Positions 1,359 through 14,742 of a stretch of DNA of 24,000 nt are shown here, in pieces. Source of the DNA: an uncultured Jatrophihabitans sp. (GTDB taxonomy: Bacteria; Actinomycetota; Actinomycetes; Mycobacteriales; Jatrophihabitantaceae); assembly GCF_964246335.1 (NCBI RefSeq), contig NZ_CAXTQF010000029.1, forward strand, positions 15,128 through 39,127, read 5' to 3'. Made by a program: the position numbers and the translations under genes. The notes under the pieces are model-generated. The model searched no databases, was not told the origin of the DNA, and saw nothing but the letters and a program-made list of their open reading frames with translations. The stretch's first letter is position 1, and every line of letters begins with the position of its first letter.

Positions 1359-3077
<1,719 letters not shown>

Positions 3078-4106
3078 TCAGGGAACGAGAATCGCCCGGC
3101 CGCGGACCTCGCCCGCGTCGAGGTCGTGCAGCGCCTCCTGGGCGGCGTCGAGCGGGTAGGTCTTCGTGTGCAGCGTGACCTTGCCGGCCTGGGCGAGCAC
3201 CATCAGCTCGGCCAGCTCGTTGTAGGTGCCGACGATGTTGCCGATCACGTTGCGTTCGGTGCTGACGACGTCGAGCGTCGGGACGTGCAGCTCGCCGCCG
3301 TAGCCGATGACGTAGTACGAGCCGCCCGGACGGGTCATCGCCCAGCCGTCGCGTTCCGCACCCTCCTCGGCGACGAAGTCGAACACCACGTCGGCGCCGG
3401 CACCGTCGGTCAGCTGCAGCACCGCGTCGACGTGCTTGCCGTCGGCCACCACGGTCTGGTTCGCGCCGAGCGACTCGGCCAGTTTGAGCGCAGCGGGATT
3501 GCGGTCGACGACGATGATGTTGGTCGCGGTCAGCGCGGTCAGGCACTGCACGCCGATGTGGCCGAGGCCGCCGGCCCCGATCACCACCGCGGTCGTCCCC
3601 GGATAGAGCAGCGGCACCGCCTTGCGCACCGCGTGGTAGGCGGTGATGCCGGCGTCGGCCAGCGCGGCGAGGGCGTTCGGCTGCGTCGACGGGGCGAGCT
3701 TGATGCACGCGCGCGCCGACGTGAGCAGGTACTCGGCCATCCCGCCGTCGGTGCCGTCCAGGCCGGGGAAGACGCTGAGTTCGCAGTGCATGTCCTGCCC
3801 GGCGCGGCACGCGCGGCACAGCCCGCAGGTCGGCGTCGGGTGCAGGATGACGGTGTCGCCGACCGCGACGTTGGTGACCGCCGAGCCGACCTCGTGCACC
3901 CAGCCGGCGTTCTCGTGCCCGATCGTGTACGGCAGGGTCGGGTGCATCGCCTCGTCCCACTGGCCGAGGATGATGTGCAGGTCGGTGCGGCACACACCGG
4001 CGCCACCGATCTTCACGACGACGTCCGTCGGCCCCTTGACGGTCGGCTCGTCCACCTCGTCGACGGTGGGTTGTTCGTTGTAGGCGTGCAACCGGACGGC
4101 CTTCAT
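3078..4106 (-). CDS. Zn-dependent medium-chain alcohol dehydrogenase (likely secondary-alcohol/2-propanol dehydrogenase)
   Basis: 342 aa. Catalytic Zn motifs GVCRTDLH and GHENAG. Structural Zn cluster CGLCRACRAGQDMHC (C-x2-C-x2-C-x7-C). NAD fold GAGGLG. The start ATG shares one nt with the upstream stop (TGATG at 4104..4108). Confidence 0.9.
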   Translation of the reverse strand: MKAVRLHAYNEQPTVDEVDEPTVKGPTDVVVKIGGAGVCRTDLHIILGQWDEAMHPTLPYTIGHENAGWVHEVGSAVTNVAVGDTVILHPTPTCGLCRACRAGQDMHCELSVFPGLDGTDGGMAEYLLTSARACIKLAPSTQPNALAALADAGITAYHAVRKAVPLLYPGTTAVVIGAGGLGHIGVQCLTALTATNIIVVDRNPAALKLAESLGANQTVVADGKHVDAVLQLTDGAGADVVFDFVAEEGAERDGWAMTRPGGSYYVIGYGGELHVPTLDVVSTERNVIGNIVGTYNELAELMVLAQAGKVTLHTKTYPLDAAQEALHDLDAGEVRGRAILVP

Positions 4107-4828
4107 CAGTCATCTCCTTCGGGGTCCACGGGCAGGCCGTAACGGTTGGCGAGCATGCCTTTGCACACGTGGCCGTTGGCCTCGAGGTTGACCCGCGTGA
4201 GCCGCGCCTTGCCCAGGTGCAGCCGCAGGTCGTCGGGTGCGACGGCCGCGCCGGTCCGCACGTCGATCAGCAGCGGCGCGTCGTCGCCGGCCGGTAGCCC
4301 GAGCTGGGCACGGCGTGCGCGCAGCCGGTCGACGTCGTCGCTGTGCGGCAGGTCGGCCAACGTCAACGTGGCCAGCTCGGCCGGCGTGCGGCGCAGCTGC
4401 CGAACGACGCGGTCGGTGCCGGCCAGGACGGCTTTGCGGACGAAGTCCGCGCGCAGCGTGTCCAACTCACCGTCGGCCAGGCTGCCGAACGACTCGACGA
4501 AGCCGGCACGCGCGGCGACGCCGGCATTGATGTCGGTCGAGGCGAAGTGGTCGTCGAGCAGCACCACCGCCCGCGTCACGCCGGGCACCGCGGCCACCGC
4601 TTCGTAGGCATCGGCCACCATCAGGAACGCGAAGTTCGGCGCACAGAAGTACGTCGGCAGTCGCAGATGCACCTCGGCGACGCCGTCGTCGCCGACCTCG
4701 CAGGAGGCGACGAAACCCAGTGACGTCACCGGCTCGTCGATCTCCGGGTCGATCACGGAGTCGAGAGCGCGCAGCACCAGGGAGCGCGCCGGCAGTGCCA
4801 GCACGCTCCCCTGGTTGGGCTGCGTCAT
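4106..4828 (-). CDS. DUF59 (MIP18/PaaD-like, Fe-S/metallocentre-assembly family) domain protein with an uncharacterised C-terminal half
   Basis: I trimmed the 453-aa track ORF to the ATG at 4828 (MTQPNQGSVL...), giving 240 aa. That ATG overlaps the amidohydrolase stop (ATGA). The N-terminal LDSVIDPEIDEPVTSLGFV ... LRLPTYFCAPNF is typical DUF59. I do not recognise the C-terminal roughly 140 aa. Confidence 0.75.
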   Translation of the reverse strand: MTQPNQGSVLALPARSLVLRALDSVIDPEIDEPVTSLGFVASCEVGDDGVAEVHLRLPTYFCAPNFAFLMVADAYEAVAAVPGVTRAVVLLDDHFASTDINAGVAARAGFVESFGSLADGELDTLRADFVRKAVLAGTDRVVRQLRRTPAELATLTLADLPHSDDVDRLRARRAQLGLPAGDDAPLLIDVRTGAAVAPDDLRLHLGKARLTRVNLEANGHVCKGMLANRYGLPVDPEGDD

Positions 4829-5874
4829 GCCTGGCCTTGGACGAGCTCCGCGTCGTCGCGCCTCGCGGGCTCGCTCTGGTCGGCGATCTGGCACTCGGCC
4901 GGGACGTCGATGTCGTAGAGCTTGGCCGCGTTGAGGCCGAGAATCTTCTTCTTGGTGTCGACGTTGACCCGCGGGTAGTCGGAGAACTCGTCGCTCGGGT
5001 AGTCCCAGTCGACGAACCCCTCGACCTGCCACTTCGGTTCCCAGATGCCGTAGTCGCTGCCGAAGGTCATCTTGTCCTCGCCGACCCAGAACAGCAGCTC
5101 GCCCATCACCTTCGCGAAGAACTTCGGCCGGGCGTACATCAGGCCACCGATGACGACCGAGAGGCCCGCGTAGACGTTGGGCTCCTGCGTCGCCATGAAG
5201 CAGAAGTCCTCGATGCGCGGCAGGCCGACGTGTTCGACGATGAAGTTCAGTTCGGGGAAGTCGGTGGCCGCGTGATCGACGTCGGACACGTCGAAAGCGT
5301 CCTTGTCCAACGGCCAGATCGTCGGGCCCTTGTGCACGTGGACGTTCTTGATCCCCAGCTCTCGGGCCTTGTCCAAGAACCGGTAGCAGTCGGGGTCGCT
5401 GAGCTTGTAGCCGCGCGAACCGTTGTTCCACTCGGCGGTGTAGAGCTTGATCCCCTTGGCGTTCCACCGCTTGACGTTGTCGGCGAACTCCTTCAGGCCG
5501 CTGTCACCGTCACGCGGGTCGAACCGGGTGTTGACGATGAACTTGCCCGGGTACTTCTCGGCCAGCGCGCCGTTCTTCTCGGTGGTGTTGAAGCCTTCCG
5601 AGTACCACTCCTTGAGGTACGTCGGCTGGAAGACCGCGACGTCGACGTGCCCCTTGTCGAACACGTCGCTCATCAGGTCGTCCTCGGAGTACCCCTCGAA
5701 GTGCTCGATCGACCAGTGCGTCTCGGGCGGCCCGAGCGACTGGTAGGCGTGGAAGCATTCGATCCACCCCTTGGCGTACTGCTCCTGGCCCTTGACCCAG
5801 TTCTCCGGTGTGGCGTCCCAGAAGTGCATGTGGCTGTCGACCACGAAGTACTTCTCGCCGTCCTTCTCGTACAC
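4825..5874 (-). CDS. Amidohydrolase-2 family metal-dependent hydrolase (TIM barrel)
   Basis: 349 aa. N-terminal VVDSHMHFW (HxH metal motif). GTG start at 5874 is preceded by AGGAG plus 6 nt. It sits at the conserved position after the coupling protein in prm/mim-type clusters. Confidence 0.8.
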   Translation of the reverse strand: MYEKDGEKYFVVDSHMHFWDATPENWVKGQEQYAKGWIECFHAYQSLGPPETHWSIEHFEGYSEDDLMSDVFDKGHVDVAVFQPTYLKEWYSEGFNTTEKNGALAEKYPGKFIVNTRFDPRDGDSGLKEFADNVKRWNAKGIKLYTAEWNNGSRGYKLSDPDCYRFLDKARELGIKNVHVHKGPTIWPLDKDAFDVSDVDHAATDFPELNFIVEHVGLPRIEDFCFMATQEPNVYAGLSVVIGGLMYARPKFFAKVMGELLFWVGEDKMTFGSDYGIWEPKWQVEGFVDWDYPSDEFSDYPRVNVDTKKKILGLNAAKLYDIDVPAECQIADQSEPARRDDAELVQGQA

Positions 5875-5912
5875 GTACGTCTCCTCACTTGCGCCGCAGC
5901 GCAGATGGACGG

Positions 5913-6287
5913 TCAGCGGGCCTTGAGGTCGAACCCGAGATATTCGGCTGCTTCCTCCGGGTTCGAGAACATGATCGTTCTGTCGTCCAGGTGGACCATG
6001 CGGCCGTAGTGCGTCGACATGTTGTTCTCGAACTCCGAGGCGCTGAAGAAGCCCTCTTCCTCACCGAGCGCCGCGTCCATGTCGTCGTAGACGACGTCGA
6101 AACGGCCGACCCCGTCGACGCGGATCATCGACGGCAGCGGCGTGACCGTCACGTTGTCGATGCGCGACAGCACCTTCGCCATCACGGCGCCGATCTGGTT
6201 GTTCATCAGCGTGAAGCCGCACATGTTCGAGAACGTCTTGTCGGACTTGAACGGGCTCTCGCTCGTCTTGAACCTGGTTTCGGTCAC
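5913..6287 (-). CDS. mimD: SDIMO coupling/effector protein (MmoB/DmpM family)
   Basis: The track ORF (216 aa) has an Arg/Gly-rich, non-coding-looking N-terminus. I call the GTG at 6287 (VTETRFKTSESPF...), which overlaps the small-subunit stop (GTGA), giving 124 aa. Size and position match the fourth gene of mimABCD/prmABCD. The start is less certain; an alternative ATG lies at MCGFTLMNN. Confidence 0.75.
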   Translation of the reverse strand: MTETRFKTSESPFKSDKTFSNMCGFTLMNNQIGAVMAKVLSRIDNVTVTPLPSMIRVDGVGRFDVVYDDMDAALGEEEGFFSASEFENNMSTHYGRMVHLDDRTIMFSNPEEAAEYLGFDLKAR

Positions 6288-7453
6288 TGCGACAGCTCCT
6301 TCGGCGACTTCAGGGACAGGTCGGACAGGATCTCGGCGAACCGGCTCTTGGCCCGGTCGAGGCCATCCTCGAACCGCGGCGCCTTGGCGTCCGGCTGCGA
6401 CCAGATGGGTTGTAGCCGGCGCGCAGCCGCGATGGAGCGTTCCGTCCACTTCGACAGCCAGCCGTCCAGGATCGACTTGTTGTGCTCGGCGAACTCCTTG
6501 TCGTTCGTCAGCAGCTCGAACATCGCCTTCGTGTACCGCAGGTCGCGCTCGGCGTAGTCCCACTCGCCCGCGCCGACGACCGTCGGCGTCACGTAGTCGC
6601 CGTTGCGCGGCGCGGCCTGCTGCACCAGGTTGCTGCGGAGGAGCTCACCCACTAGCGGCTCGAACACGACGTTGACCGCGAACACGGCTTCGCACCAGTC
6701 GTCGATGCAAGTTATCTGCTCGGCGACCTCACGCACGCCCTGCCAGGCGTCGTCGCTGTTCCACGTCTCGACGTGCGCCGAGCCGTCGAAGCCCTCGATC
6801 TCCTCGCTGAGCGTGAGGTTGTAGAGCGCGAGGTCCTGGGCGAAGCGGATCCGGTGCATGCTGTTCACCGAGATCGCGTTGTTGTGCATGTTCGTGGGCG
6901 CCCGCCGGTTGGCGTTCGCGAACACGTACAGCCCGAAACCGTGATCGACGTGCATCCAGGCGCCGACGTTGCGCTCGACGAACGTCACCCAGTTCGGGCT
7001 CCACTGGCTGAACGCCTTGGTCTGGCGCGCGGTCTCCACGTTCTGGTTGATCTGCCGCACGACGTTGGAGTTGTAGCGGTAGAAGGTGAGTTCCCACTCC
7101 TCGTTCGGGTCGCGGAACTCGTGCCACCCGTGGGCCGGCCAGTCGTAACCCTTGCCGCCCGATCCCGGGTAGCGCTCGGGTTCGGGACGGTCACTGCCCC
7201 AGGCCTTGAGCGCCGTCCAGTCGAGCGGGTAACCGCCGCGGCCGTCGGAGAAGCCGTAGATCCACCCCTGGGACAGGTAGTGGCGCGGGTCGGGCTGGAC
7301 CTCGACAGTGACGTCCTCGTAGTGCGACTGACGCCGCTTCGCCGGGGTGAAGTAGTTGTAGCTGCGCGCGGTCGAGTCCGGGAACTCCTTGGCGCCTGCC
7401 TCGGCGTCGGTGAATTCCGGTCTCGGTGCGCTGCGTTCCGTGGTCTCGGTCAT
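6284..7453 (-). CDS. mimC: SDIMO hydroxylase small (beta) subunit
   Basis: I trimmed the 484-aa track ORF to the ATG at 7453 (MTETTERSAPRPEF...), which is 2 nt after the reductase stop, giving 389 aa. It is the third gene in the large subunit, reductase, small subunit, coupling protein order diagnostic of propane/acetone-type SDIMOs. Confidence 0.85.
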   Translation of the reverse strand: MTETTERSAPRPEFTDAEAGAKEFPDSTARSYNYFTPAKRRQSHYEDVTVEVQPDPRHYLSQGWIYGFSDGRGGYPLDWTALKAWGSDRPEPERYPGSGGKGYDWPAHGWHEFRDPNEEWELTFYRYNSNVVRQINQNVETARQTKAFSQWSPNWVTFVERNVGAWMHVDHGFGLYVFANANRRAPTNMHNNAISVNSMHRIRFAQDLALYNLTLSEEIEGFDGSAHVETWNSDDAWQGVREVAEQITCIDDWCEAVFAVNVVFEPLVGELLRSNLVQQAAPRNGDYVTPTVVGAGEWDYAERDLRYTKAMFELLTNDKEFAEHNKSILDGWLSKWTERSIAAARRLQPIWSQPDAKAPRFEDGLDRAKSRFAEILSDLSLKSPKELSQ

Positions 7454-7455
7454 GG

Positions 7456-8502
7456 CTACTCTCTCCCCGGGTCGCCGGTTGTGGTGAATTTGTCGTAGTA
7501 GATGTGTTTCTCGTCCGCGCCCAGCGCGACGAGTGCTTCCATCGCCGCCTCGACCATCGGCGGCGGCCCGCAGACGTAGCAGTCGGCGGCGGACAGGTCG
7601 GTCTCGTTCTTGCTCATCACGTCGGTGATCAGCCCGGTCTCGCCGTCCCACCCGTCGCCCTCGTGATCGGACAACGCAGGGACGAAGCGGAAGTTCGCCA
7701 ACTGGCCCTGCAGGTTCGCCAGCTCCTCGGTGAAGCACAGATCGGGGACCTGTCGGGCGCCGTAGTAGTAGGTCGCCTTGCGGGTGCTGCCCCGCTCGGC
7801 CAACGAGCGCAGCACCGACAGGATCGGCGCCATCCCGGCGCCGCCGCCGAGGAACACCATGTCCGAGTCGCGCCCGTCGCGCAGGGTGAAGACGCCGAAC
7901 GGGCCGGTCAGCTCGAGGACGTCACCGACCTTGAGCTGCGTGTCGAGATATCCGGAGAACAGGCCGCCCGGGTAGATGCGGATGACGAACTCGAGTTCGG
8001 TGCCGCCGGAAGACGGGGTGTTGGCAACGGAGAACGAGCGGGTCTCGTCGGTGCCGGGAACGGTGAAGTCCCAGTACTGGCCGGCGAAGAAGTTGACGCT
8101 CTCCGGCTCGACGATCTTCACCTTGACGTGTCGCATGTCGCGGGTGACGGGATCCACCGAGACGACTTCGGCCTTGGCCCGCTGGATGGGGTGCCCGGAC
8201 CGGATCATCTCCTCGTCGTAGTTGAGCAGCTCGATCGTCACGTCCTCGTAGACGTGCGCCCGGCACAGCAGCGTGAAGCCCTCGTCCTTCTCGAAGTCGG
8301 GCAGCGCGAAGGTGGAGTACTTGTCGAGCTCGATGTCGTCGCCGTCGAGGACGAAGGACTTGCAGGAGGCGCACTGCCCTTCCTTGCAGCCGTGCATGAG
8401 CATGATGCCCTGCTCGGTAGCGGCGCGCAGCACGTTCTGTTCCTCGTCGACCTCGATCTCGATGCCGACGGGCTCGAAGCGTACTGAGTGCTTGTCAGCC
8501 AA
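7456..8502 (-). CDS. mimB: SDIMO NADH oxidoreductase (plant-type 2Fe-2S ferredoxin plus FNR-like FAD/NAD domain)
   Basis: 348 aa. 2Fe-2S ligands CKEGQCASC (C-x4-C-x2-C) plus a later LLCRAH. FAD motif RSFSVAN. NAD motif GGGAGMAP. The start is TTG at 8502, with AGGAG 7 nt upstream. Confidence 0.9.
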   Translation of the reverse strand: MADKHSVRFEPVGIEIEVDEEQNVLRAATEQGIMLMHGCKEGQCASCKSFVLDGDDIELDKYSTFALPDFEKDEGFTLLCRAHVYEDVTIELLNYDEEMIRSGHPIQRAKAEVVSVDPVTRDMRHVKVKIVEPESVNFFAGQYWDFTVPGTDETRSFSVANTPSSGGTELEFVIRIYPGGLFSGYLDTQLKVGDVLELTGPFGVFTLRDGRDSDMVFLGGGAGMAPILSVLRSLAERGSTRKATYYYGARQVPDLCFTEELANLQGQLANFRFVPALSDHEGDGWDGETGLITDVMSKNETDLSAADCYVCGPPPMVEAAMEALVALGADEKHIYYDKFTTTGDPGRE

Positions 8503-8593: not shown

Positions 8594-10246
8594 TCAGGCG
8601 TCGGCAGGCGCCGGGCGGCCGGCGGGACCCTGCTTGACGTAGTCGGCGTGGTACGCCTTCTGCTCGTCCGCGCTCATCTCGTTGAGCAGCACGTTCGGGC
8701 TCTGCAGCGGCGGGCACCGGCGCAGGTGGTCGAGCGTCCACATCTTCTTCGGGTCCAGATTCAGGTGCGGCTGTGCCGTGAGCGTCTTGCCGTCGTCGCG
8801 CACGTAGCCCATGTCGGAGACGACGTCGGCCCAGTTCCAGCCGTGGTAGAGCGTCTCCCACTCGCGCTTGCCGATCAGCTGACCCATGTTCGGCGTATCG
8901 CGACCCTCGTACGTGGGCCGGAACGCGACGGTGTCCGTCCACCGGCAGGCCTCGTGGCAGTAGGTGCGCATCTGCCCGTCGACCTCGGCCATGACCATGT
9001 CCTCACGGACCAGGCAGGGCACCATGCAGGTCCAGCACCGGGCCGGGTAGACGTAGTCGACGTCCTCGAGCGCGATCGGGTTGTGCCCGTTCGCGACCGA
9101 CAGGCGGGCGTAGTTCTCCCACCAGGCGCCGTACTTGTCGTACCAGCCCGGGTACTTGTACTCGAACCACTCGAAGTCCTCGTCGGTCATCGGGTCGATG
9201 CGCCAGTAGTTGGCGAGCCACCCGGTGGCGAAGAACTGCGCGACCTCGTGCACGTAGCCCTTGTTCCAGATCTGGTTCCACGACTCTTCGATCAGGTCGT
9301 GCGGGATCTCCAGGCCGTACTTCTCCAGCGGGACGAGGTAGCTGCGGTAGTAGTCGTCGTAGATCCACCGACGCCACATCTCCGCATAGCTCTCCCGATC
9401 CTTGCGGCGGTCCTTCGTGCCGTACTCGATGAAGGTGCCGATCGCGGCGTCCACGACCCGGTGGTTGTTCCACCACGCGTAACGCAGGTCGCGGGCCAGC
9501 AGCTGGTGGTTGCTCTCGTCCGACAGTGCCATCAGCAGCGTCGCGTACCCGTTGCTGATGTGCCGCGACTCGTCCGACTGCACGGAGTGGAACACCGTCG
9601 GCAACAGGTAGTCACCGTTGGCGGCCGCCTCGGCCGGCATCGCGACGAACAGCGTGTTCGTGAACGCCGTCTCGGCGACGATGGTCAAGTAGATGCTCGC
9701 GGCGGTGATCGCATCGCCGGTGATGAAGCCCTCCGCGAACTGCCGCCCGATGGTGCCGCAGTAGTCGTTTTGGAAGTTCTTCAGGCTGCTGTTGAAGCCG
9801 GCCGGGTCGATGTAGTTGTTCATGTACAGGCGCTTGAGGTTCTGCTGGATCGTCGAGTGGCGAACCTCGTCGATCATCTGGATCGCCTGCCCGTTGTGCA
9901 GCTCCGGGTTCGGCACCGTGTTGAACAGCAGCGGCATCGCGCGCGCCGCGGAGATCTCCGGCAACGGGATGATCGACAGGAACAGCTTCTGCCATTCCAG
10001 CCACCGCTCCTGCACCTGGCGGAACATGTTGCCGCGAATCGCGCCGTCGGATGCCCCGTAAACGCGGTGGTCCTTCTCCTCCTCCATCGGGAAGTAGGAC
10101 CGCAACACCTGCTTGAGCGGGTCCTTCTTCTTCGCCTTCTGGAAGGTGTAGTCGGTGCCGTACTGCGAGACCGGCGTGTGGTACAGCGGATCCCAGGACA
10201 GCTCCTGGATCTTTTCGTGGGCCTTGGCCACGCTCTGACGACTCAT
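8594..10246 (-). CDS. mimA: SDIMO hydroxylase large (alpha) subunit, propane/acetone/phenol monooxygenase type
   Basis: I trimmed the track ORF to the ATG at 10246 ([13 protein letters not shown]...), with GAGGAG 7 nt upstream, giving 550 aa. Both di-iron ExxH motifs are present (MIDEVRHST and [11 protein letters not shown]). From memory, the sequence is close to the MimA/PrmA large subunits of Mycolicibacterium, Rhodococcus and Gordonia. Confidence 0.93.
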
Positions 10247-10312
10247 TGCCACACTCCTCGGGTAGACAGGTGCGTCATCTGGCAATCAGACCCGGCCGCG
10301 GACGGTCGCCAA

Positions 10313-10327
10313 GTCTCAGTACGAGAC
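10313..10327. promoter_or_regulatory. Dyad GTCTC-AGTAC-GAGAC (copy 1 of a recurrent 15-bp operator-like motif)
   Basis: Perfect 5-bp arms. It lies 16 nt after the orf94 stop and 67..81 nt upstream of the mimA ATG. Confidence 0.55.
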
Positions 10328-10343
10328 ACCTGTCGTCGAGGCA

Positions 10344-10628
10344 TCACGCCTCGGTCCCGCGCTCGAAGACGACGGCGCGGATCTCGTCGAGATCCCTGCG
10401 CACCTGACGCATCACCTCGCGGTTGCCCTCGGCGAGTGGCTCGATCCCGAGTGAGCGCAGCAGCGCCCGAGCCGGCTCGGCGGGATCGCCGGCCTCGCCG
10501 AGGACCGGGTGCAACCCCTCGTCGGCGAGCTGCGCGAACACCGTGTGGACCACTGTCCACGGGTTGTACGTCTCGACATCCGATTCGTCGGCCGGCAAGT
10601 TGCTCAGCTGACTGTCCCCGACTCGCAC
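10344..10628 (-). CDS. Hypothetical acidic 94-aa protein between the regulator and mimA
   Basis: The reading frame has a strong GC3 bias (for example CTC GAC GAG ATC CGC GCC GTC GTC TTC GAG). The track start is TTG at 10649, but GGAGG plus 7 nt precedes the GTG at 10628, which I prefer. I recognise no family. Confidence 0.55.
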   Translation of the reverse strand: MRVGDSQLSNLPADESDVETYNPWTVVHTVFAQLADEGLHPVLGEAGDPAEPARALLRSLGIEPLAEGNREVMRQVRRDLDEIRAVVFERGTEA

Positions 10629-10695
10629 GCGCTCACCTCCGGACAGCAATACCTCGGACGTGCGTCCGGTGACTGGTCGACCGGCCGCACCTGCC

Positions 10696-10705
10696 GGTCT
10701 AGACC
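10696..10705. promoter_or_regulatory. 10-bp perfect palindrome GGTCTAGACC (related GTCT/AGAC half-sites, zero spacer)
   Basis: Seen directly. Its centre is about 31 bp from the centre of the 10725..10739 dyad, in the divergent orf94/mimR intergenic region. Confidence 0.3.
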
Positions 10706-10724
10706 CCCGCCGAGGGGCCGAAAA

Positions 10725-10739
10725 GTCTCAATTTGAGAC
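10725..10739. promoter_or_regulatory. Dyad GTCTCAA-T-TTGAGAC (copy 2, perfect 7-1-7 palindrome)
   Basis: Located in the divergent intergenic region, about 97 nt upstream of the orf94 GTG (10628) and 136 nt upstream of the mimR ATG (10875). Confidence 0.6.
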
Positions 10740-10874
10740 ACCGAAGGCGGTCGCATTGCGTACATTTGTGAGGTAGACCACTGCGCCTGAGTACATGCCA
10801 GGCGCCGATCCGGTCCGTGCTGAGTCGACAGCGGGGAAGCGACCGGTGGGAGGCGATCGGAGGTCGGCTCGACC

Positions 10875-12662
10875 ATGACTGGTCCGCCTATTCCGTCGCT
10901 GACGCCCGACGCCGGCGGAGTGGCAGCGAACCGGCTGCGCTTCCTGACCGACGACGGCCGCCCCGAGCGGGTACGACCGCTGATCCTGGCGTCGTGGCGG
11001 CGGTCCCGGAACTTCTCGGTCGCGCCGGACTCGCTGGAACTGCCCTACCGCGCCGACCTCCAGATCGACACGCCGCTCGTGCGCAGCGCACAGCCGGTGC
11101 TGGCCCGGCTCGCCGAACAGCTCAGCGGCCAGCCCATCAGCATCGTCCTCACCGACGCCGCCGGCCTCGTGCTCAGCCGCCGCAGCGGCACCGCTGAACT
11201 GGAGCGATACCTCGACAGCGTCCGACTCGCGCCCGGATTCAATTACGCCGAGGAATTCGTCGGCACCAACGGAATCGGTACCGCGTTGGAGGCCGGTTCG
11301 GCGGCCGAGGTCTTCGGCCACGAGCACTACGCCGAGGACCTGGAGCGGCTGGCGTGCGCCGGCGTGCCGATCCACGACCCGATCAGCGGGCGGCTGCTCG
11401 GGGTCATCGACCTCACGTGCTGGCGAAAAGACGCCGAGTCACTGCTGTTGACGCTGGCCACCTCGACGGCCGACCAGATCAAGCACGCCCTGGTGGAGTC
11501 GTCGAGCGCTCGTGAGTTCGAGGTGCTGCGGGCATACCGGCAGACCTGTCGGCGCACCAACGGCATCGTGTTCGCCGTCACCAACGACGCAATGATGCTC
11601 AACAGCTACGCGCAGGCCGAGCTCGACCCGGCCGACCAGGCGGCGTTGCAGACGATGGCCGGTGAGACGGCGTCGTCGGCCCTGGCCGGCCGGCGGCACT
11701 CACTCTCCCTTGTGCTGCCGAGCGGCGCTGCGGCGCAGCTGTACTGCCAGCAGGTCGATTACGACGGTGCGCCGGCCGGTCTGGTCGTCCACGTCAAGCT
11801 CGTCCAGGACGCCGGTGCGCCGACCGGGATGGCCGACGCCTCGATGTCGGTGCCCGGTCTGGTCGGCGACACGTCGTCGTGGCGACGGGTCTGTCGGCAG
11901 GTGCAGGAAGCGATGAACGCGCGCAGCTGGCTGATGCTCGAGGGTGAGGTCGGTACCGGCAAGGTCGCGTTGCTGCGCGGGGTCCAGGTGCGCCGGCAGC
12001 CGCCCGCGCGCAGCGTCGTGCTCGACGCCGCGGACGTGGGGCCCGGTTGGATGGACGAGGCACGGCGCGCCGTCGCCGCGAACGACACCGTCATCTTCGC
12101 GCACGTCGACCAGCTCAATCCCGCTCGCGTTCGCGCACTGCACGCGCTGCTCGACGACACCCGGCGTGATCCCGAACGCCGTGACCTGTGGGTGGCCGCG
12201 ACCTGTCGACCCGGCGCCGGGGACGACGCGCTGGCCCGGTTGATGCCGTTCTTCCCCACCACCCTGGCCGTGCCGCCGCTGCGCCTGCACATCGACGACC
12301 TGCCGGGCCTGGTCACCTTCTTCCTCGGCAAGCTGGGTTCCGGCGGCAATGTGCAGCTCGCCCCCGCCGCCCTGCGCGTGCTCATGCGCTCACCGTGGCC
12401 CGGCAACGTCCGTCAGCTGCAGCAGCTTGTCCACGACCTGTTGCAGCACCGGCGATCCGGGGTGGTCGGCGTCGAGGACCTGCCGCCGGAGATGCATTCC
12501 ATCAGCCGGCGAGTGCTGTCCACGCTCGAGCAGATGGAACGGGACGCGATCGTGCGCAGCCTCACCGACGCCAGGGGCAACAAGGTGCAGGCCGCGCGAT
12601 CGCTGGGCATGTCCCGCGCGACGATCTACCGCAAGATCCACGAATTCGGCATCGTCCTGTAA
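10875..12662 (+). CDS. mimR: NtrC/AcoR-family transcriptional activator (GAF sensor, degenerate AAA+, Fis-type HTH), MimR-like
   Basis: 595 aa. AcoR-type GAF block: GTNGIGTALE...VFGHEHY...CAGVPIHDPISGRLLGVIDLT. Walker-A-like GEVGTGK. Conserved PPLRLHIDDLP and WPGNVRQL. C-terminal HTH_8: MERDAIVRSLTDARGNKVQAARSLGMSRATIYRKI. It is divergent from the SDIMO operon. GGAGG lies upstream of the ATG. Confidence 0.88.
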   Translation: MTGPPIPSLTPDAGGVAANRLRFLTDDGRPERVRPLILASWRRSRNFSVAPDSLELPYRADLQIDTPLVRSAQPVLARLAEQLSGQPISIVLTDAAGLVLSRRSGTAELERYLDSVRLAPGFNYAEEFVGTNGIGTALEAGSAAEVFGHEHYAEDLERLACAGVPIHDPISGRLLGVIDLTCWRKDAESLLLTLATSTADQIKHALVESSSAREFEVLRAYRQTCRRTNGIVFAVTNDAMMLNSYAQAELDPADQAALQTMAGETASSALAGRRHSLSLVLPSGAAAQLYCQQVDYDGAPAGLVVHVKLVQDAGAPTGMADASMSVPGLVGDTSSWRRVCRQVQEAMNARSWLMLEGEVGTGKVALLRGVQVRRQPPARSVVLDAADVGPGWMDEARRAVAANDTVIFAHVDQLNPARVRALHALLDDTRRDPERRDLWVAATCRPGAGDDALARLMPFFPTTLAVPPLRLHIDDLPGLVTFFLGKLGSGGNVQLAPAALRVLMRSPWPGNVRQLQQLVHDLLQHRRSGVVGVEDLPPEMHSISRRVLSTLEQMERDAIVRSLTDARGNKVQAARSLGMSRATIYRKIHEFGIVL

Positions 12663-12680
12663 CGCGGCCGCGGCTGCGGT

Positions 12681-12890
12681 TCAGGTCGCGAGCAGGCAGA
12701 CCCCGCTGATCGCGACGAGGGCCGACGCGAGCTGCACGCCCCGGGTATGGGCTTGCAGCCAGCGCACGTGCGGCCGGTGACAGGCCGGGATGAGCCGGGG
12801 GTCCACGTGGTGGACGGCGACGCTCCACGACCACTGCACCAACGACACGAGCGCGGCCACCGCGAGCAGCGCCACCGCGGTCTGTGACAT
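12681..12890 (-). CDS. Hypothetical 69-aa two-helix membrane peptide
   Basis: ATG at 12890 with GGAG 7 nt upstream. GC3-rich codons throughout. Two hydrophobic segments (AVALLAVAALVSLV and LASALVAISGVCLLA). No recognisable family. Confidence 0.45.
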   Translation of the reverse strand: MSQTAVALLAVAALVSLVQWSWSVAVHHVDPRLIPACHRPHVRWLQAHTRGVQLASALVAISGVCLLAT

Positions 12891-12958
12891 GCGTCGGCTC
12901 CTTCGTCGGCATCGCGGTGCGTACCCGGTAATCGTGGCGCCGTCGCAATCCGCCGACT

Positions 12959-12973
12959 GTCTCAGTCTGAGAC
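12959..12973. promoter_or_regulatory. Dyad GTCTCAG-T-CTGAGAC (copy 3, perfect 7-1-7 palindrome)
   Basis: It lies 7 nt after the stop of the SatP-like gene and 69 nt upstream of the 69-aa ORF start. A 1-nt loop makes an RNA hairpin implausible, so a protein-binding dyad is more likely. Confidence 0.55.
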
Positions 12974-12980
12974 CGGCCGG

Positions 12981-13664
12981 TCAGTGCACAACGGGTCGGC
13001 CGAGCGCCAACGCTTTGCCGCCGGTAGCCACCGACGAAACACCCATGTAGAGGTAGACGCCCACTGCGGCGAACGCGAAGGCGACTATGCCGGCGATCTT
13101 GGACCATGTGCTCGAGGCGTTGACGGTCGAGATGAGCACGCACACGAGGCATGCCTCGACCAGCACGAACAGCAGCGTGAACGCGAACGGCAGACGCAGG
13201 GTGGCCAGGGTCAGCATGCCGATGATGACCAGCCAGGTGATCAGGAACGCCGCCTGCGTGTGCAGCGCCGCGTTCGGCGTGATTGCGAACCAGTTGTGCG
13301 TGAGCCCGAGCACGAGGGCGGCGTAGCTGAGCCAGAAACCGGAGAAGATGCCGAAGATGCTCGCGACCGCGCTCTGCCCGAGGGCTGCCGCCCACACCGT
13401 GCTGACCGCGAGACCGAATCCCGTCGCCGTCGCGATGATCGGCATCGACGAGCCGAGGCCGCCGGTCGGGACGTAGCCCACCAGCACCAGCGCGAGGGCA
13501 ACAGTGCCTGCGACGAAGACCGGCAGGCCGAGGGCCGCGGGATTGCCGGACAGGAACGGTGGGGTCGGATCGGGTGCGGGCGCCTCGGCGGTCGGGGTGG
13601 GCCTGCGTTCGGTGGCGATGTGGTCGCCGGAGGCGCCTTCGACGCCTGCGTGGGTTGCAGTCAT
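12981..13664 (-). CDS. GPR1/FUN34/YaaH-family (SatP/AceTr-type) acetate/succinate channel homologue
   Basis: I trimmed the track ORF to the ATG at 13664 (MTATHAG...), with GAGGAG upstream, giving 227 aa. Family signature NPAALGL (consensus NPAPLGL) is followed by six hydrophobic helices. Confidence 0.8.
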   Translation of the reverse strand: MTATHAGVEGASGDHIATERRPTPTAEAPAPDPTPPFLSGNPAALGLPVFVAGTVALALVLVGYVPTGGLGSSMPIIATATGFGLAVSTVWAAALGQSAVASIFGIFSGFWLSYAALVLGLTHNWFAITPNAALHTQAAFLITWLVIIGMLTLATLRLPFAFTLLFVLVEACLVCVLISTVNASSTWSKIAGIVAFAFAAVGVYLYMGVSSVATGGKALALGRPVVH

Positions 13665-13739
13665 GACGAACTCCTCGGTGCGGAACGATCTTCTTGTCGA
13701 GATCGCCGACGATGCTCGCAACGTGGACGCCTCGGCTGC

Positions 13740-13754
13740 GTCTCACTCTGGGAC
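13740..13754. promoter_or_regulatory. Dyad GTCTC-ACTCT-GGGAC (copy 4, one mismatch), overlapping the palindrome GGGACGTCCC (13750..13759)
   Basis: Seen directly in the SatP-like/BLUF divergent intergenic region. Confidence 0.35.
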
Positions 13755-13787
13755 GTCCCGCGCACACCACCGGAAACGACGGTGCAC

Positions 13788-13802
13788 GTCTCAATCCGAG
13801 AC
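13788..13802. promoter_or_regulatory. Dyad GTCTC-AATCC-GAGAC (copy 5, perfect; arms extend to ACGTCTC/GAGACGT at 13786..13804)
   Basis: It lies 124 nt upstream of the SatP-like ATG (13664) and 126 nt upstream of the BLUF ATG (13928). Confidence 0.6.
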
Positions 13803-13830
13803 GTCCGCGACGGTGCCGGCCGGCCGGGTC

Positions 13831-13845
13831 GTCGCAGAGTGAGAC
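13831..13845. promoter_or_regulatory. Dyad GTCGC-AGAGT-GAGAC (copy 6, one mismatch)
   Basis: Its centre is 43 bp from the centre of copy 5, in the same intergenic region and 83 nt upstream of the BLUF ATG. Confidence 0.35.
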
Positions 13846-13927
13846 CGCAGATCCCGCCGGTGCGCGGACGATGAGCGCGCAGGCCGTGGGTTGGTCCATC
13901 GAGTTCTTCGCATGAGGAGGCACCCGG

Positions 13928-14377
13928 ATGAGCAGTGACGGATTGCAGGGCCCCGCGTTCCGCCTCATGTACCGCAGCCACAGTCTGATCCCGGCCGAGT
14001 CGAGCAAGGCCGAGCTCGGCGCGCTGTTCTCGGTCGCGCGATCGAACAACAAGAAGCTCGGGATCACCGGCGCCCTGATGCTGGACGCGGAGTGGTTCGT
14101 GCAGACGCTGGAGGGCGACGAGGCTGCCGTGCGCTCGCTGTTCGAACGCATCAGCACCGATCCCCGGCACGACGACGTCGCCGTGCTCGACACCGCAACG
14201 GTGCCCGCCCGCGCGTTCCCGCACTGGTCGATGGCGCAGGTGTCCACCGCCGGCAAGGACGACGTCTATCTCATCGCGCACGAGGACGGCATCGCGCCGG
14301 CGACCCCGCGGCGACGCAGTCCGGAGCAGGACGCAGCGCTCGACACCATGCGCGCAGCGGTGAGCGCGCAGGTCTAG
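13928..14377 (+). CDS. Short stand-alone BLUF-domain (blue-light sensor using FAD) protein
   Basis: 149 aa. ATG is preceded by GAGGAGG plus 7 nt. BLUF hallmarks: LMYRS (Tyr15), SNNKKLGITGAL (Asn40/41), FVQTLEG (Gln59), DPRH, and FPHWSM (Trp100, Met102). The Gln-to-Met spacing of 43 matches what I recall for AppA. Confidence 0.85.
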   Translation: MSSDGLQGPAFRLMYRSHSLIPAESSKAELGALFSVARSNNKKLGITGALMLDAEWFVQTLEGDEAAVRSLFERISTDPRHDDVAVLDTATVPARAFPHWSMAQVSTAGKDDVYLIAHEDGIAPATPRRRSPEQDAALDTMRAAVSAQV

Positions 14378-14572: not shown

Positions 14573-14668
14573 GGCATCTCCAGGTGCGACTGGCTGGATG
14601 GTTCGCCTCATCGTGTGCGGCAGGGTCTGCTGCGGACGTGTCACTTTGCGACACAAGGAACGTCTGGG

Positions 14669-14742
14669 AGCCGCCTGTCGGAGTCGAACCGACGACCTGC
14701 CGCTTACAAGGCGGCTGCTCTGACCAACTGAGCTAAGGCGGC
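14669..14742 (-). tRNA. tRNA-Thr (anticodon UGU)
   Basis: The reverse complement folds as a canonical 74-nt cloverleaf: acceptor GCCGCCT/AGGCGGC, D arm GCTC..GAGC, anticodon stem GCCGC/GCGGC with loop CTTGTAA, variable AGGTC, T arm GTCGG-TTCGACT-CCGAC, discriminator T. CCA is not exactly encoded; the genomic sequence continues CCCA. Confidence 0.93.

Follow-up and report, generated by a model that had tools for sequence, protein, structure and literature searches.

MimR of Mycolicibacterium smegmatis and M. goodii is an NtrC/AcoR-like regulator with GAF, AAA+ and helix-turn-helix (HTH) domains, and its gene is divergent to a mimABCD cluster with amidohydrolase, adh and groEL-like genes. In 2011 Furuya et al. 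reportedly found that the M. smegmatis protein is an acetone-responsive positive regulator of mimABCD, and they are said to have remarked on the absence of sigma-54. We are not aware that an operator, a promoter geometry or a degenerate AAA+ core has been published for MimR. Here we describe a gene of the same kind in a 24,000 nt stretch of DNA from an uncultured Jatrophihabitans sp. (contig NZ_CAXTQF010000029.1; we call the whole stretch the window). The gene lies at 10875..12662 on the + strand and encodes a protein of 595 amino acids, which we call the regulator. We think it likely that the regulator is an atypical enhancer-binding protein (EBP) of the MimR/DhaR type, ATPase-dead and independent of sigma-54, and that it works as a class-II-like activator of a divergent operon made up of a small open reading frame (ORF), mimABCD, adh and groEL.

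Both MimR and the regulator come from a phylum without sigma-54, and both genes are divergent to the same kind of cluster. One difference is that the window locus, like most of its relatives, has the small ORF between the regulator gene and mimA; to our knowledge this ORF is not annotated in M. smegmatis.

The literature names mimR as the regulator of mimABCD (PMC8394569). TyrR, DhaR and HupR are sigma-70-dependent EBP homologs with a defective GAFTGA motif (PMC3162934), and the atypical EBPs TyrR, HupR, HsfA, PhhR, NtrX and VpsR have no GAFTGA and often have non-consensus Walker motifs (PMC6158489). TyrR, DhaR, HupR, NtrX and VpsR all act independently of sigma-54 (PMC6158489, PMC3162934), and VpsR has been proposed as a class-II activator of sigma-70 RNA polymerase (PMC6158489). 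The closest characterized architecture is that of Escherichia coli DhaR, the sigma-70-dependent activator of dhaKLM, which is also GAF-PAS-AAA+-HTH. However, DhaR takes its signal from two proteins, DhaK and DhaL, and not from a small molecule, and the neighbors of the regulator are mimABCD-type genes and not dha genes. TyrR and PhhR are likewise sigma-70-dependent and without GAFTGA, and they use the AAA+ domain for ligand- and ATP-dependent oligomerization instead of remodeling, but TyrR has an ACT-PAS sensor part. The missing GAFTGA and a non-consensus Walker B are also found in VpsR (Vibrio cholerae) and NtrX (Brucella abortus), but both are response regulators with REC input; VpsR needs cyclic di-GMP and NtrX represses. 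AcoR (Bacillus) and AcxR (Xanthobacter), sigma-54-dependent acetoin and acetone regulators, have GAF-type sensors, the same general layout and a place in ketone catabolism. Both are canonical bacterial EBPs (bEBPs): they have GAFTGA, their ATPase is intact and their promoters are of the -24/-12 type, and the regulator locus shows none of these features.

A reduced AAA+ core

An earlier note on this DNA had read the protein as a GAF, AAA+ and Fis-HTH activator, and this layout was borne out by Pfam matches to GAF (residues 71-199), AAA_lid_14 (473-544) and HTH_8 (550-591) together with a core that is homologous to bEBPs. We combined the ORF, Pfam, an AlphaFold2 (AF2) model and the family to set the domain limits, all on the + strand. 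A GAF sensor domain (residues ~60-210, 11052..11504), also found by phmmer and by Foldseek to DhaR(N) 4lrx, is followed by a PAS-like domain (~211-311, 11505..11807) seen in the AF2 secondary structure and by Foldseek. After these come a reduced AAA+ alpha/beta core (333-466, 11871..12272), an AAA+ lid with PPLR and WPGN motifs (467-545, 12273..12509) and a Fis-type HTH (12510..12659). The AF2 model was built from a 37-sequence alignment and has a mean predicted local distance difference test (pLDDT) score of 69, with 75-93 over residues 340-470.

The comparisons show that the AAA+ core is a true bEBP homolog. With hhalign, the regulator family matched the bEBP AAA+ domain with a probability of 98.3% (E 1e-14, 206 columns). 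With Foldseek against the PDB, Brucella NtrX came first (E 2e-12), then ZraR, FleQ, NtrC1, VpsR and LuxO; for the AAA+/lid/HTH part the E values ran from 2e-12 to 1e-8 (NtrX, ZraR, FleQ, NtrC1, VpsR). The N-terminal half of the regulator instead matched the DhaR(N) structures 4lrx/4lrz, and the alignment to this DhaR GAF-PAS fragment spans 312 columns. In a phmmer search of PDB sequences, only the lid and HTH matched bEBPs, and the N-terminal half matched DhaR(N). In NCBIfam, DhaR (NF008485, an equivalog model) was the best match to the regulator, at 142 bits vs a cutoff of 551. We conclude that the regulator descends from sigma-54 activators; the bEBP descent proposed in the earlier note is upheld by both the hhalign and the Foldseek results.

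The core is shorter than that of any protein in our comparison set, which was E. coli PspF, NtrC, ZraR, TyrR and DhaR taken from NC_000913. From the Walker-A Lys to the Walker-B Asp there are 49 residues in the regulator vs 65 in PspF, NtrC and ZraR (62 in DhaR, 58 in TyrR). From Walker B to PPLR there are 58 vs 73, and both DhaR and TyrR also have 73 here. The total deficit relative to PspF, NtrC and ZraR is 31 residues, in two deletions of 16 and 15 that were placed by hhalign and MAFFT. The first deletion takes out ESELFGH...GAFTGA, which is the L1 hairpin. The second takes out the pre-sensor-I hairpin and the arginine-finger helix, and where the pre-sensor-I (L2) hairpin would have its motif E.G...RVGG there is a short loop at residues 432-438. 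The L1 and pre-sensor-I hairpins are the two parts of the bEBP surface that engage sigma-54. What is left in the AF2 model is a minimal core of five strands, in which one helix lies between strands 2 and 3 and strand 4 is preceded by a short loop. The earlier note had put the Walker A to Walker B segment at about 20 residues too short. The shortening is there, but it amounts to 16 residues, and the second deletion, of 15 residues between Walker B and PPLR, had been missed.

The motifs quoted in the note are where it said they were: GEVGTGK at residues 357-363 (11943..11963, +), DAADVGPGWMDEARRAVA at 384-401 (12024..12077, +) and FAHVDQL at 408-414 (12096..12116, +). By MAFFT, hhalign and the AF2 model, DAADVGPGWMDEARRAVA is what stands in for ESELFGH...GAFTGA, and it is modeled with a single helix (392-402). 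A string search of the regulator found neither GAFTGA nor ESELFGH within 2 mismatches at the L1 position. The only 2-mismatch GAFTGA string in the whole protein is GAPTGM (314-319). It falls in the disordered linker that precedes Walker A, where the alignment is variable, and we discounted it as due to chance. Pfam Sigma54_activat (PF00158) matched residues 330-370 to profile positions 2-42 of 168 with 12.8 bits, which is under its gathering score of 20.2. The reading that nothing like ESELFGH..GAFTGA is present has held up: the region is deleted.

The relatives with atypical cores are less reduced. DhaR, which also has no GAFTGA, shows a milder decay (GKA after the P-loop, LEK at Walker B and no sensor-II Arg, the sequence there being NDFEL) in a core of near full length. 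TyrR keeps ESELFGH, the Walker B DE, sensor II and the full distal core, and has only a 7-residue deletion in L1. We know of no report that VpsR or NtrX is without the pre-sensor-I hairpin or the arginine-finger helix. The regulator is therefore not a canonical sigma-54-dependent bEBP, as the profile match, GAFTGA, the pre-sensor-I hairpin, the catalytic set and the promoter are all lacking. By its AAA+/lid/HTH homology and its missing GAFTGA it would be classed with the atypical EBPs.

Catalytic residues and family constraint

The regulator belongs to a family with more than 3,600 protein matches, which are actinobacterial wherever they are named, and at least 598 genomic loci carry it. The core features are family-wide at this scale, which rules out an artifact of sequencing or a frameshift. 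Source databases name members 'transcriptional regulator of acetoin/glycerol metabolism'. Rhodococcus plasmids carry 2-5 paralogs each, for which the PGAP name is only 'helix-turn-helix domain-containing protein'. Many source annotations of family members read 'sigma-54 dependent'. The Pfam accessions PF26961 and PF26965 were precomputed on every homolog listed, and curated models may thus exist for the N-terminal part or the reduced AAA+ part.

We counted motif states in 113 non-redundant members. The P-loop GExGxGK was invariant (113/113), with the Lys itself in 111/113. The residue after this Lys is hydrophobic, Val or Leu (Leu in 84 of 113), where bEBPs have Glu. In the Walker B remnant, H410 was invariant (113/113) and D412, the Walker B Asp, was kept in 89% of members, so that the family has a new invariant or near-invariant His-x-Asp (H410-x-D412) beside the P-loop. 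By contrast with these, the position of the catalytic Glu (413) was R in 38 members, L in 14, A in 12, V in 10, K in 9, Q in 8, E in 8 and S in 5. The sensor-I polar position was Leu in 90/113, and the sensor-II Arg was found in 3/113, the regulator (R513) among them. The hydrolysis residues are not under selection, while the P-loop, GAF and HTH are under strong selection. Among the folded domains, conservation was highest in the HTH (0.84), then in the GAF (0.80), and lowest in the AAA+ alpha/beta core (0.62).

The earlier note had described a replacement of the catalytic Walker-B Glu, from DE to DQ. D412-Q413 is indeed present, but position 413 varies freely across the 113 members, which makes 'DQ' one of its states and not a specific E-to-Q change. 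Since the hydrolysis residues are not conserved, ATP hydrolysis by the regulator is very unlikely, in keeping with the suggestion in the note that it is possibly ATPase-dead. Since the P-loop is invariant, binding of nucleotide or phosphate by the AAA+ remnant may persist.

One alternative, which we consider quite unlikely, is that the remnant has stayed active as an NTPase motor, which either remodels a holoenzyme of the sigma-70 family or works with an alternative or extracytoplasmic function sigma factor, through non-canonical catalytic residues such as H410 and D412. None of the catalytic Glu, the sensor-I polar residue, the arginine finger and the sensor-II Arg is conserved in the family, the helix with the trans-acting arginine is deleted, and a more distant paralog has Arg in place of the P-loop Lys. 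That the AAA+ core is the least conserved of the folded domains also argues against a motor, whereas the constancy of the P-loop, H410 and D412 is what a motor would lead one to expect. The -10-like hexamers of the catabolic promoters (see below) follow a G run and are non-canonical, and might suit an alternative sigma factor.

The GAF domain has two invariant stretches, GTNGIGTAL (130-138) and VFGHEHY (146-152). Its most conserved part (GTNGIGTAL...VFGHEHY...LACAG, residues 125-162, 11247-11360) is also where the AF2 model has its lowest confidence, with pLDDT <50. All 37 sequences of the alignment share Cys161, Cys182, Cys225 and Cys340. The conserved GAF stretch and the invariant Cys residues could form a ligand, metal or redox site.

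A palindrome tied to the regulator gene

The intergenic region upstream of the regulator gene has two copies of a 27-nt element centered on GTCTC-N5-GAGAC. The first, putative operator O1 (10725..10739), is a perfect 7-1-7 palindrome, GTCTCAA-T-TTGAGAC. It is shared by the divergent promoters of the regulator and the small ORF, and is conserved in 67 related loci. The second, putative operator O2 (GTCTCAGTACGAGAC, 10313..10327), is just upstream of mimA, and sites of the O2 type were found in 30 sites or loci. The consensus palindrome is TGTCTCA-N3-TGAGACA. Four further palindromes are past the 3' end of the regulator gene: O3 (GTCTCAGTCTGAGAC, 12959..12973), which is 76 nt upstream of a 69-amino-acid ORF with two transmembrane helices, and O4 (13740-13754, 1 mismatch), O5 (13788-13802, exact) and O6 (13831-13845, 1 mismatch), which lie between a YaaH-family gene and a BLUF gene. 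The window thus has 6 palindromes vs 1.7 expected, and none of 100 shuffles reached six. All six are intergenic and inside 3.5 kb around the regulator.

The association extends beyond this genome. In 79 related loci (1.2 Mb in total) we found 100 exact copies of the palindrome, of which 95 were within 700 nt upstream of the regulator vs 0.9 in shuffles; another 4 were just downstream of it and 1 was elsewhere. The palindrome is tied to the regulator gene across Actinomycetota.

Two more distant paralogs are worth describing. On a plasmid of R. aetherivorans (L084), a 41%-identical paralog beside a prm-like cluster keeps the palindrome, and its P-loop Lys is replaced by Arg (GSGRT). On pRHL2 of Rhodococcus jostii RHA1 (L085, 156421-158253), a 37%-identical paralog is divergent to acetone-carboxylase-type genes (hydantoinase/oxoprolinase and a gamma subunit). 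The intergenic region of the latter has no GTCTC-N5-GAGAC site, so distant paralogs probably use other operators.

We looked at whether the palindrome might belong to another factor, either the product of the small ORF (10344..10649, -) or a global regulator, with the regulator itself binding elsewhere or non-specifically. The regulator would own the palindrome by co-occurrence, and the small ORF also co-occurs, by tblastn, in 73/79 related loci. However, 99 of the 100 palindrome copies are adjacent to the regulator gene, and the palindrome is kept in the Rhodococcus plasmid locus L084, where the regulator is not divergent to a small ORF. The HTH is the most conserved domain of the regulator and a 15-17 bp inverted repeat suits a dimer of Fis-type HTHs, while the small ORF encodes a three-helix protein of ~82 amino acids with no detectable DNA-binding family. 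We therefore regard another owner of the palindrome as very improbable.

Promoter geometry and sigma factor

We counted positions from the palindrome center in the 67 loci. Toward the regulator, a TANNNT hexamer starts at +29/+30 in 52/67 loci vs a background of 0.29 per position. In the window this is TACATT (10761..10766, +), the predicted -10 hexamer of the regulator's own promoter, which starts 29 bp from the O1 center. Toward the small ORF and mimA there is a G-rich run and then a T-N3-A-T hexamer at +30 to +35. The corresponding -10-like hexamer of the small-ORF/operon promoter is TCTAGA (10698..10703, -), which follows a G run and lies 29-34 bp from the O1 center; the position matrix for this side of O1 has G at +26 in 76% and T at +30 in 78%. 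For O2 it is TCTGAT (10285..10290, -), 30-35 bp from the center, and the O2-side family matrix has T in 97%, A in 87% and T in 87% at hexamer positions 1, 5 and 6. These -10-type hexamers are at a fixed distance, so the palindrome center would be near -41.5, the position of a class-II activator.

We rejected the half-site TTGAGA as a -35 element, as its 22 nt spacing to the -10 hexamer is too long. A scan with E. coli-type -35/-10 elements found no promoter in 10200-14000; such a scan is uninformative for GC-rich Actinobacteria, yet the result fits promoters without a -35 element.

A sigma-54 promoter was also rejected. When 3 mismatches were allowed, TGGCAC-N5-TTGC had 194 matches in the window vs 207 expected, and no match with fewer than 3 mismatches was found in 10286-10874. 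A relaxed -24/-12 regular expression showed no positional peak in the 67 loci, and the conserved positions do not fit the GG/GC spacing. There is thus no -24/-12 promoter before mimA, and none that recurs in homologous loci. None of the window ORFs scanned matched a sigma-54 family. Actinomycetota effectively lack functional RpoN (PMC12316311, PMC3162934), so the statement in the earlier note that Actinobacteria lack it is supported at the level of the phylum.

The same geometry can be read in another way, with the regulator mainly a repressor or anti-activator that sits on palindromes over the -35 regions, and with an inducer that releases or remodels it, so that activation of mimABCD is derepression. 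The palindrome does cover the -35 position on both sides, and with its good TANNNT the regulator's own promoter would have no obvious need for an activator. Against this, poor -10 hexamers and a missing -35, as seen in the catabolic promoters, are typical where an activator is needed, and a center at -41.5 is the canonical class-II activator position. Deletion of mimR in M. smegmatis is also said to abolish expression and not to make it constitutive (Furuya et al., 2011). NtrX, the top structural match, is a repressor (PMC6158489), but on balance we find this explanation unlikely.

Proposed mechanism

We therefore favor an atypical, sigma-54-independent EBP that activates from a class-II-like position. 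The view in the earlier note, a bEBP repurposed as a sigma-70-type, ligand-gated activator, is supported by the deletions, the promoter geometry and the synteny, with ligand gating a presumption. In this model, a dimer or higher oligomer of the regulator would bind the palindromes through its Fis-type HTH, and the inducer sensed by the GAF-PAS module would probably be acetone or a related ketone or alcohol. The bound protein would then activate RNA polymerase carrying a SigA-type sigma factor through direct, class-II-like contact. From O1 it would drive the promoter of the small ORF, mimABCD, amidohydrolase, adh and groEL, and also control its own promoter; from O2 it would activate an internal mimA promoter. 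Through O3-O6 the genes for the YaaH-family transporter, the small membrane protein and the BLUF protein would probably be activated too. The AAA+ remnant would serve as an oligomerization scaffold, possibly as a nucleotide-binding module like the ATP binding in TyrR, and not as a motor.

Several points weigh against this model. It is drawn from sequence, and binding of the regulator to the palindrome is deduced from co-occurrence only. The -41.5 position depends on calling the conserved hexamers -10 elements, and the two in the catabolic direction, TCTAGA and TCTGAT, do not have A at position 2, as would be usual. A site at -41.5 could also repress instead of activate where the promoter is well formed, as the regulator's own is. 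The invariant P-loop, H410 and D412 leave room for residual or unconventional nucleotide chemistry, and the absence of rpoN from the source genome is carried over from the phylum.

A more ambitious version of the model is possible, although we hold it only tentatively. In it the phylum-wide family is the most reduced bEBP derivative so far, and its AAA+ remnant senses nucleotide (energy state) or phosphate. This would gate the oligomerization of a protein that activates SigA promoters in class-II fashion from -41.5, combining ketone sensing by the GAF domain with nucleotide status, and the small ORF would be a further component.

Gene neighborhood

The mimABCD/prmABCD-type cluster divergent to the regulator is complete in the window. 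The first of its genes is a mimA/prmA-type di-iron monooxygenase large subunit (hydroxylase alpha; 8594..10246, -; Pfam Phenol_Hydrox, 8e-56). The rest of the operon spans 1359..8502 on the - strand and was assigned by Pfam and synteny: a reductase (7456-8502), the hydroxylase beta subunit (6284 to ~7450), an MmoB-type coupling protein (5913 to ~6260), an amidohydrolase (4825-5874), a zinc alcohol dehydrogenase (3078-4106) and a GroEL-like chaperonin (1359-3050). Synteny of the regulator with mimABCD was found in 67 of the 79 related loci (L005-L083). We take the regulator to be of the MimR type, whose members go with group 5/6 di-iron monooxygenase clusters, on the strength of this divergent cluster and its groEL-like chaperonin gene.

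Across these loci MimA shares 88-96% identity with its counterpart in the window; for the regulator the figure is only 47-63%. The regulator evolves far faster than the enzyme under its control. The longest mimA ORF begins at a TTG at 10285, but there it overlaps with the predicted -10 hexamer. The ATG at 10246 has a GGAG ribosome-binding site in front of it, and the N-terminus from there (MSRQSVAK...) agrees with related loci. The true start of mimA is probably this ATG.

The small ORF, which separates mimA from the regulator and is the first gene after O1 in its direction, encodes about 82-101 amino acids. It has 997 homologs, all 'hypothetical', and its GC content at third codon positions is 0.86. 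Pfam gave no convincing family for it (DUF5319 at E 0.0065, under the cutoff), and the AF2 model has three helices at low confidence (pLDDT 63). Its product may be an assembly factor or a co-regulator.

Behind the regulator, the 69-amino-acid ORF (12681-12890, -) has two predicted transmembrane helices and a strong AAGGAG Shine-Dalgarno sequence, and seems to have gone unannotated. It is just past a gene for a GPR1/FUN34/YaaH-family (acetate/succinate-type) transporter (12981-13721, -), and a YaaH homolog is found behind the regulator in 13/79 related loci. The BLUF blue-light sensor gene is at 13928-14377 (+). A tRNA-Thr (anticodon TGT) is located at 14667-14742 (-), and the ORFs listed across it are spurious.

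Significance

The general concept is known: the paradox of sigma-54-type activators in a phylum without sigma-54 goes back to the MimR work, and Proteobacteria have similar atypical EBPs. Our literature search for actinobacterial atypical EBPs found no relevant account, and as far as we could find, the extent of the core reduction and the operator/promoter model are undescribed. What this analysis adds is a testable model for a large actinobacterial family, which gives the boundaries of the deletions, the residues under selection (the P-loop and H410-x-D412), an operator and a class-II-like geometry. It also outlines a probable local regulon of the monooxygenase operon, the small ORF, the YaaH-family transporter, the small membrane protein and the BLUF gene. 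The model would help correct the common 'sigma-54-dependent' annotations, and it may be of use for acetone, propane or ketone biosensors and for inducible expression systems in Actinomycetota. More broadly, it bears on how a motor ATPase domain may be recycled into a passive scaffold.

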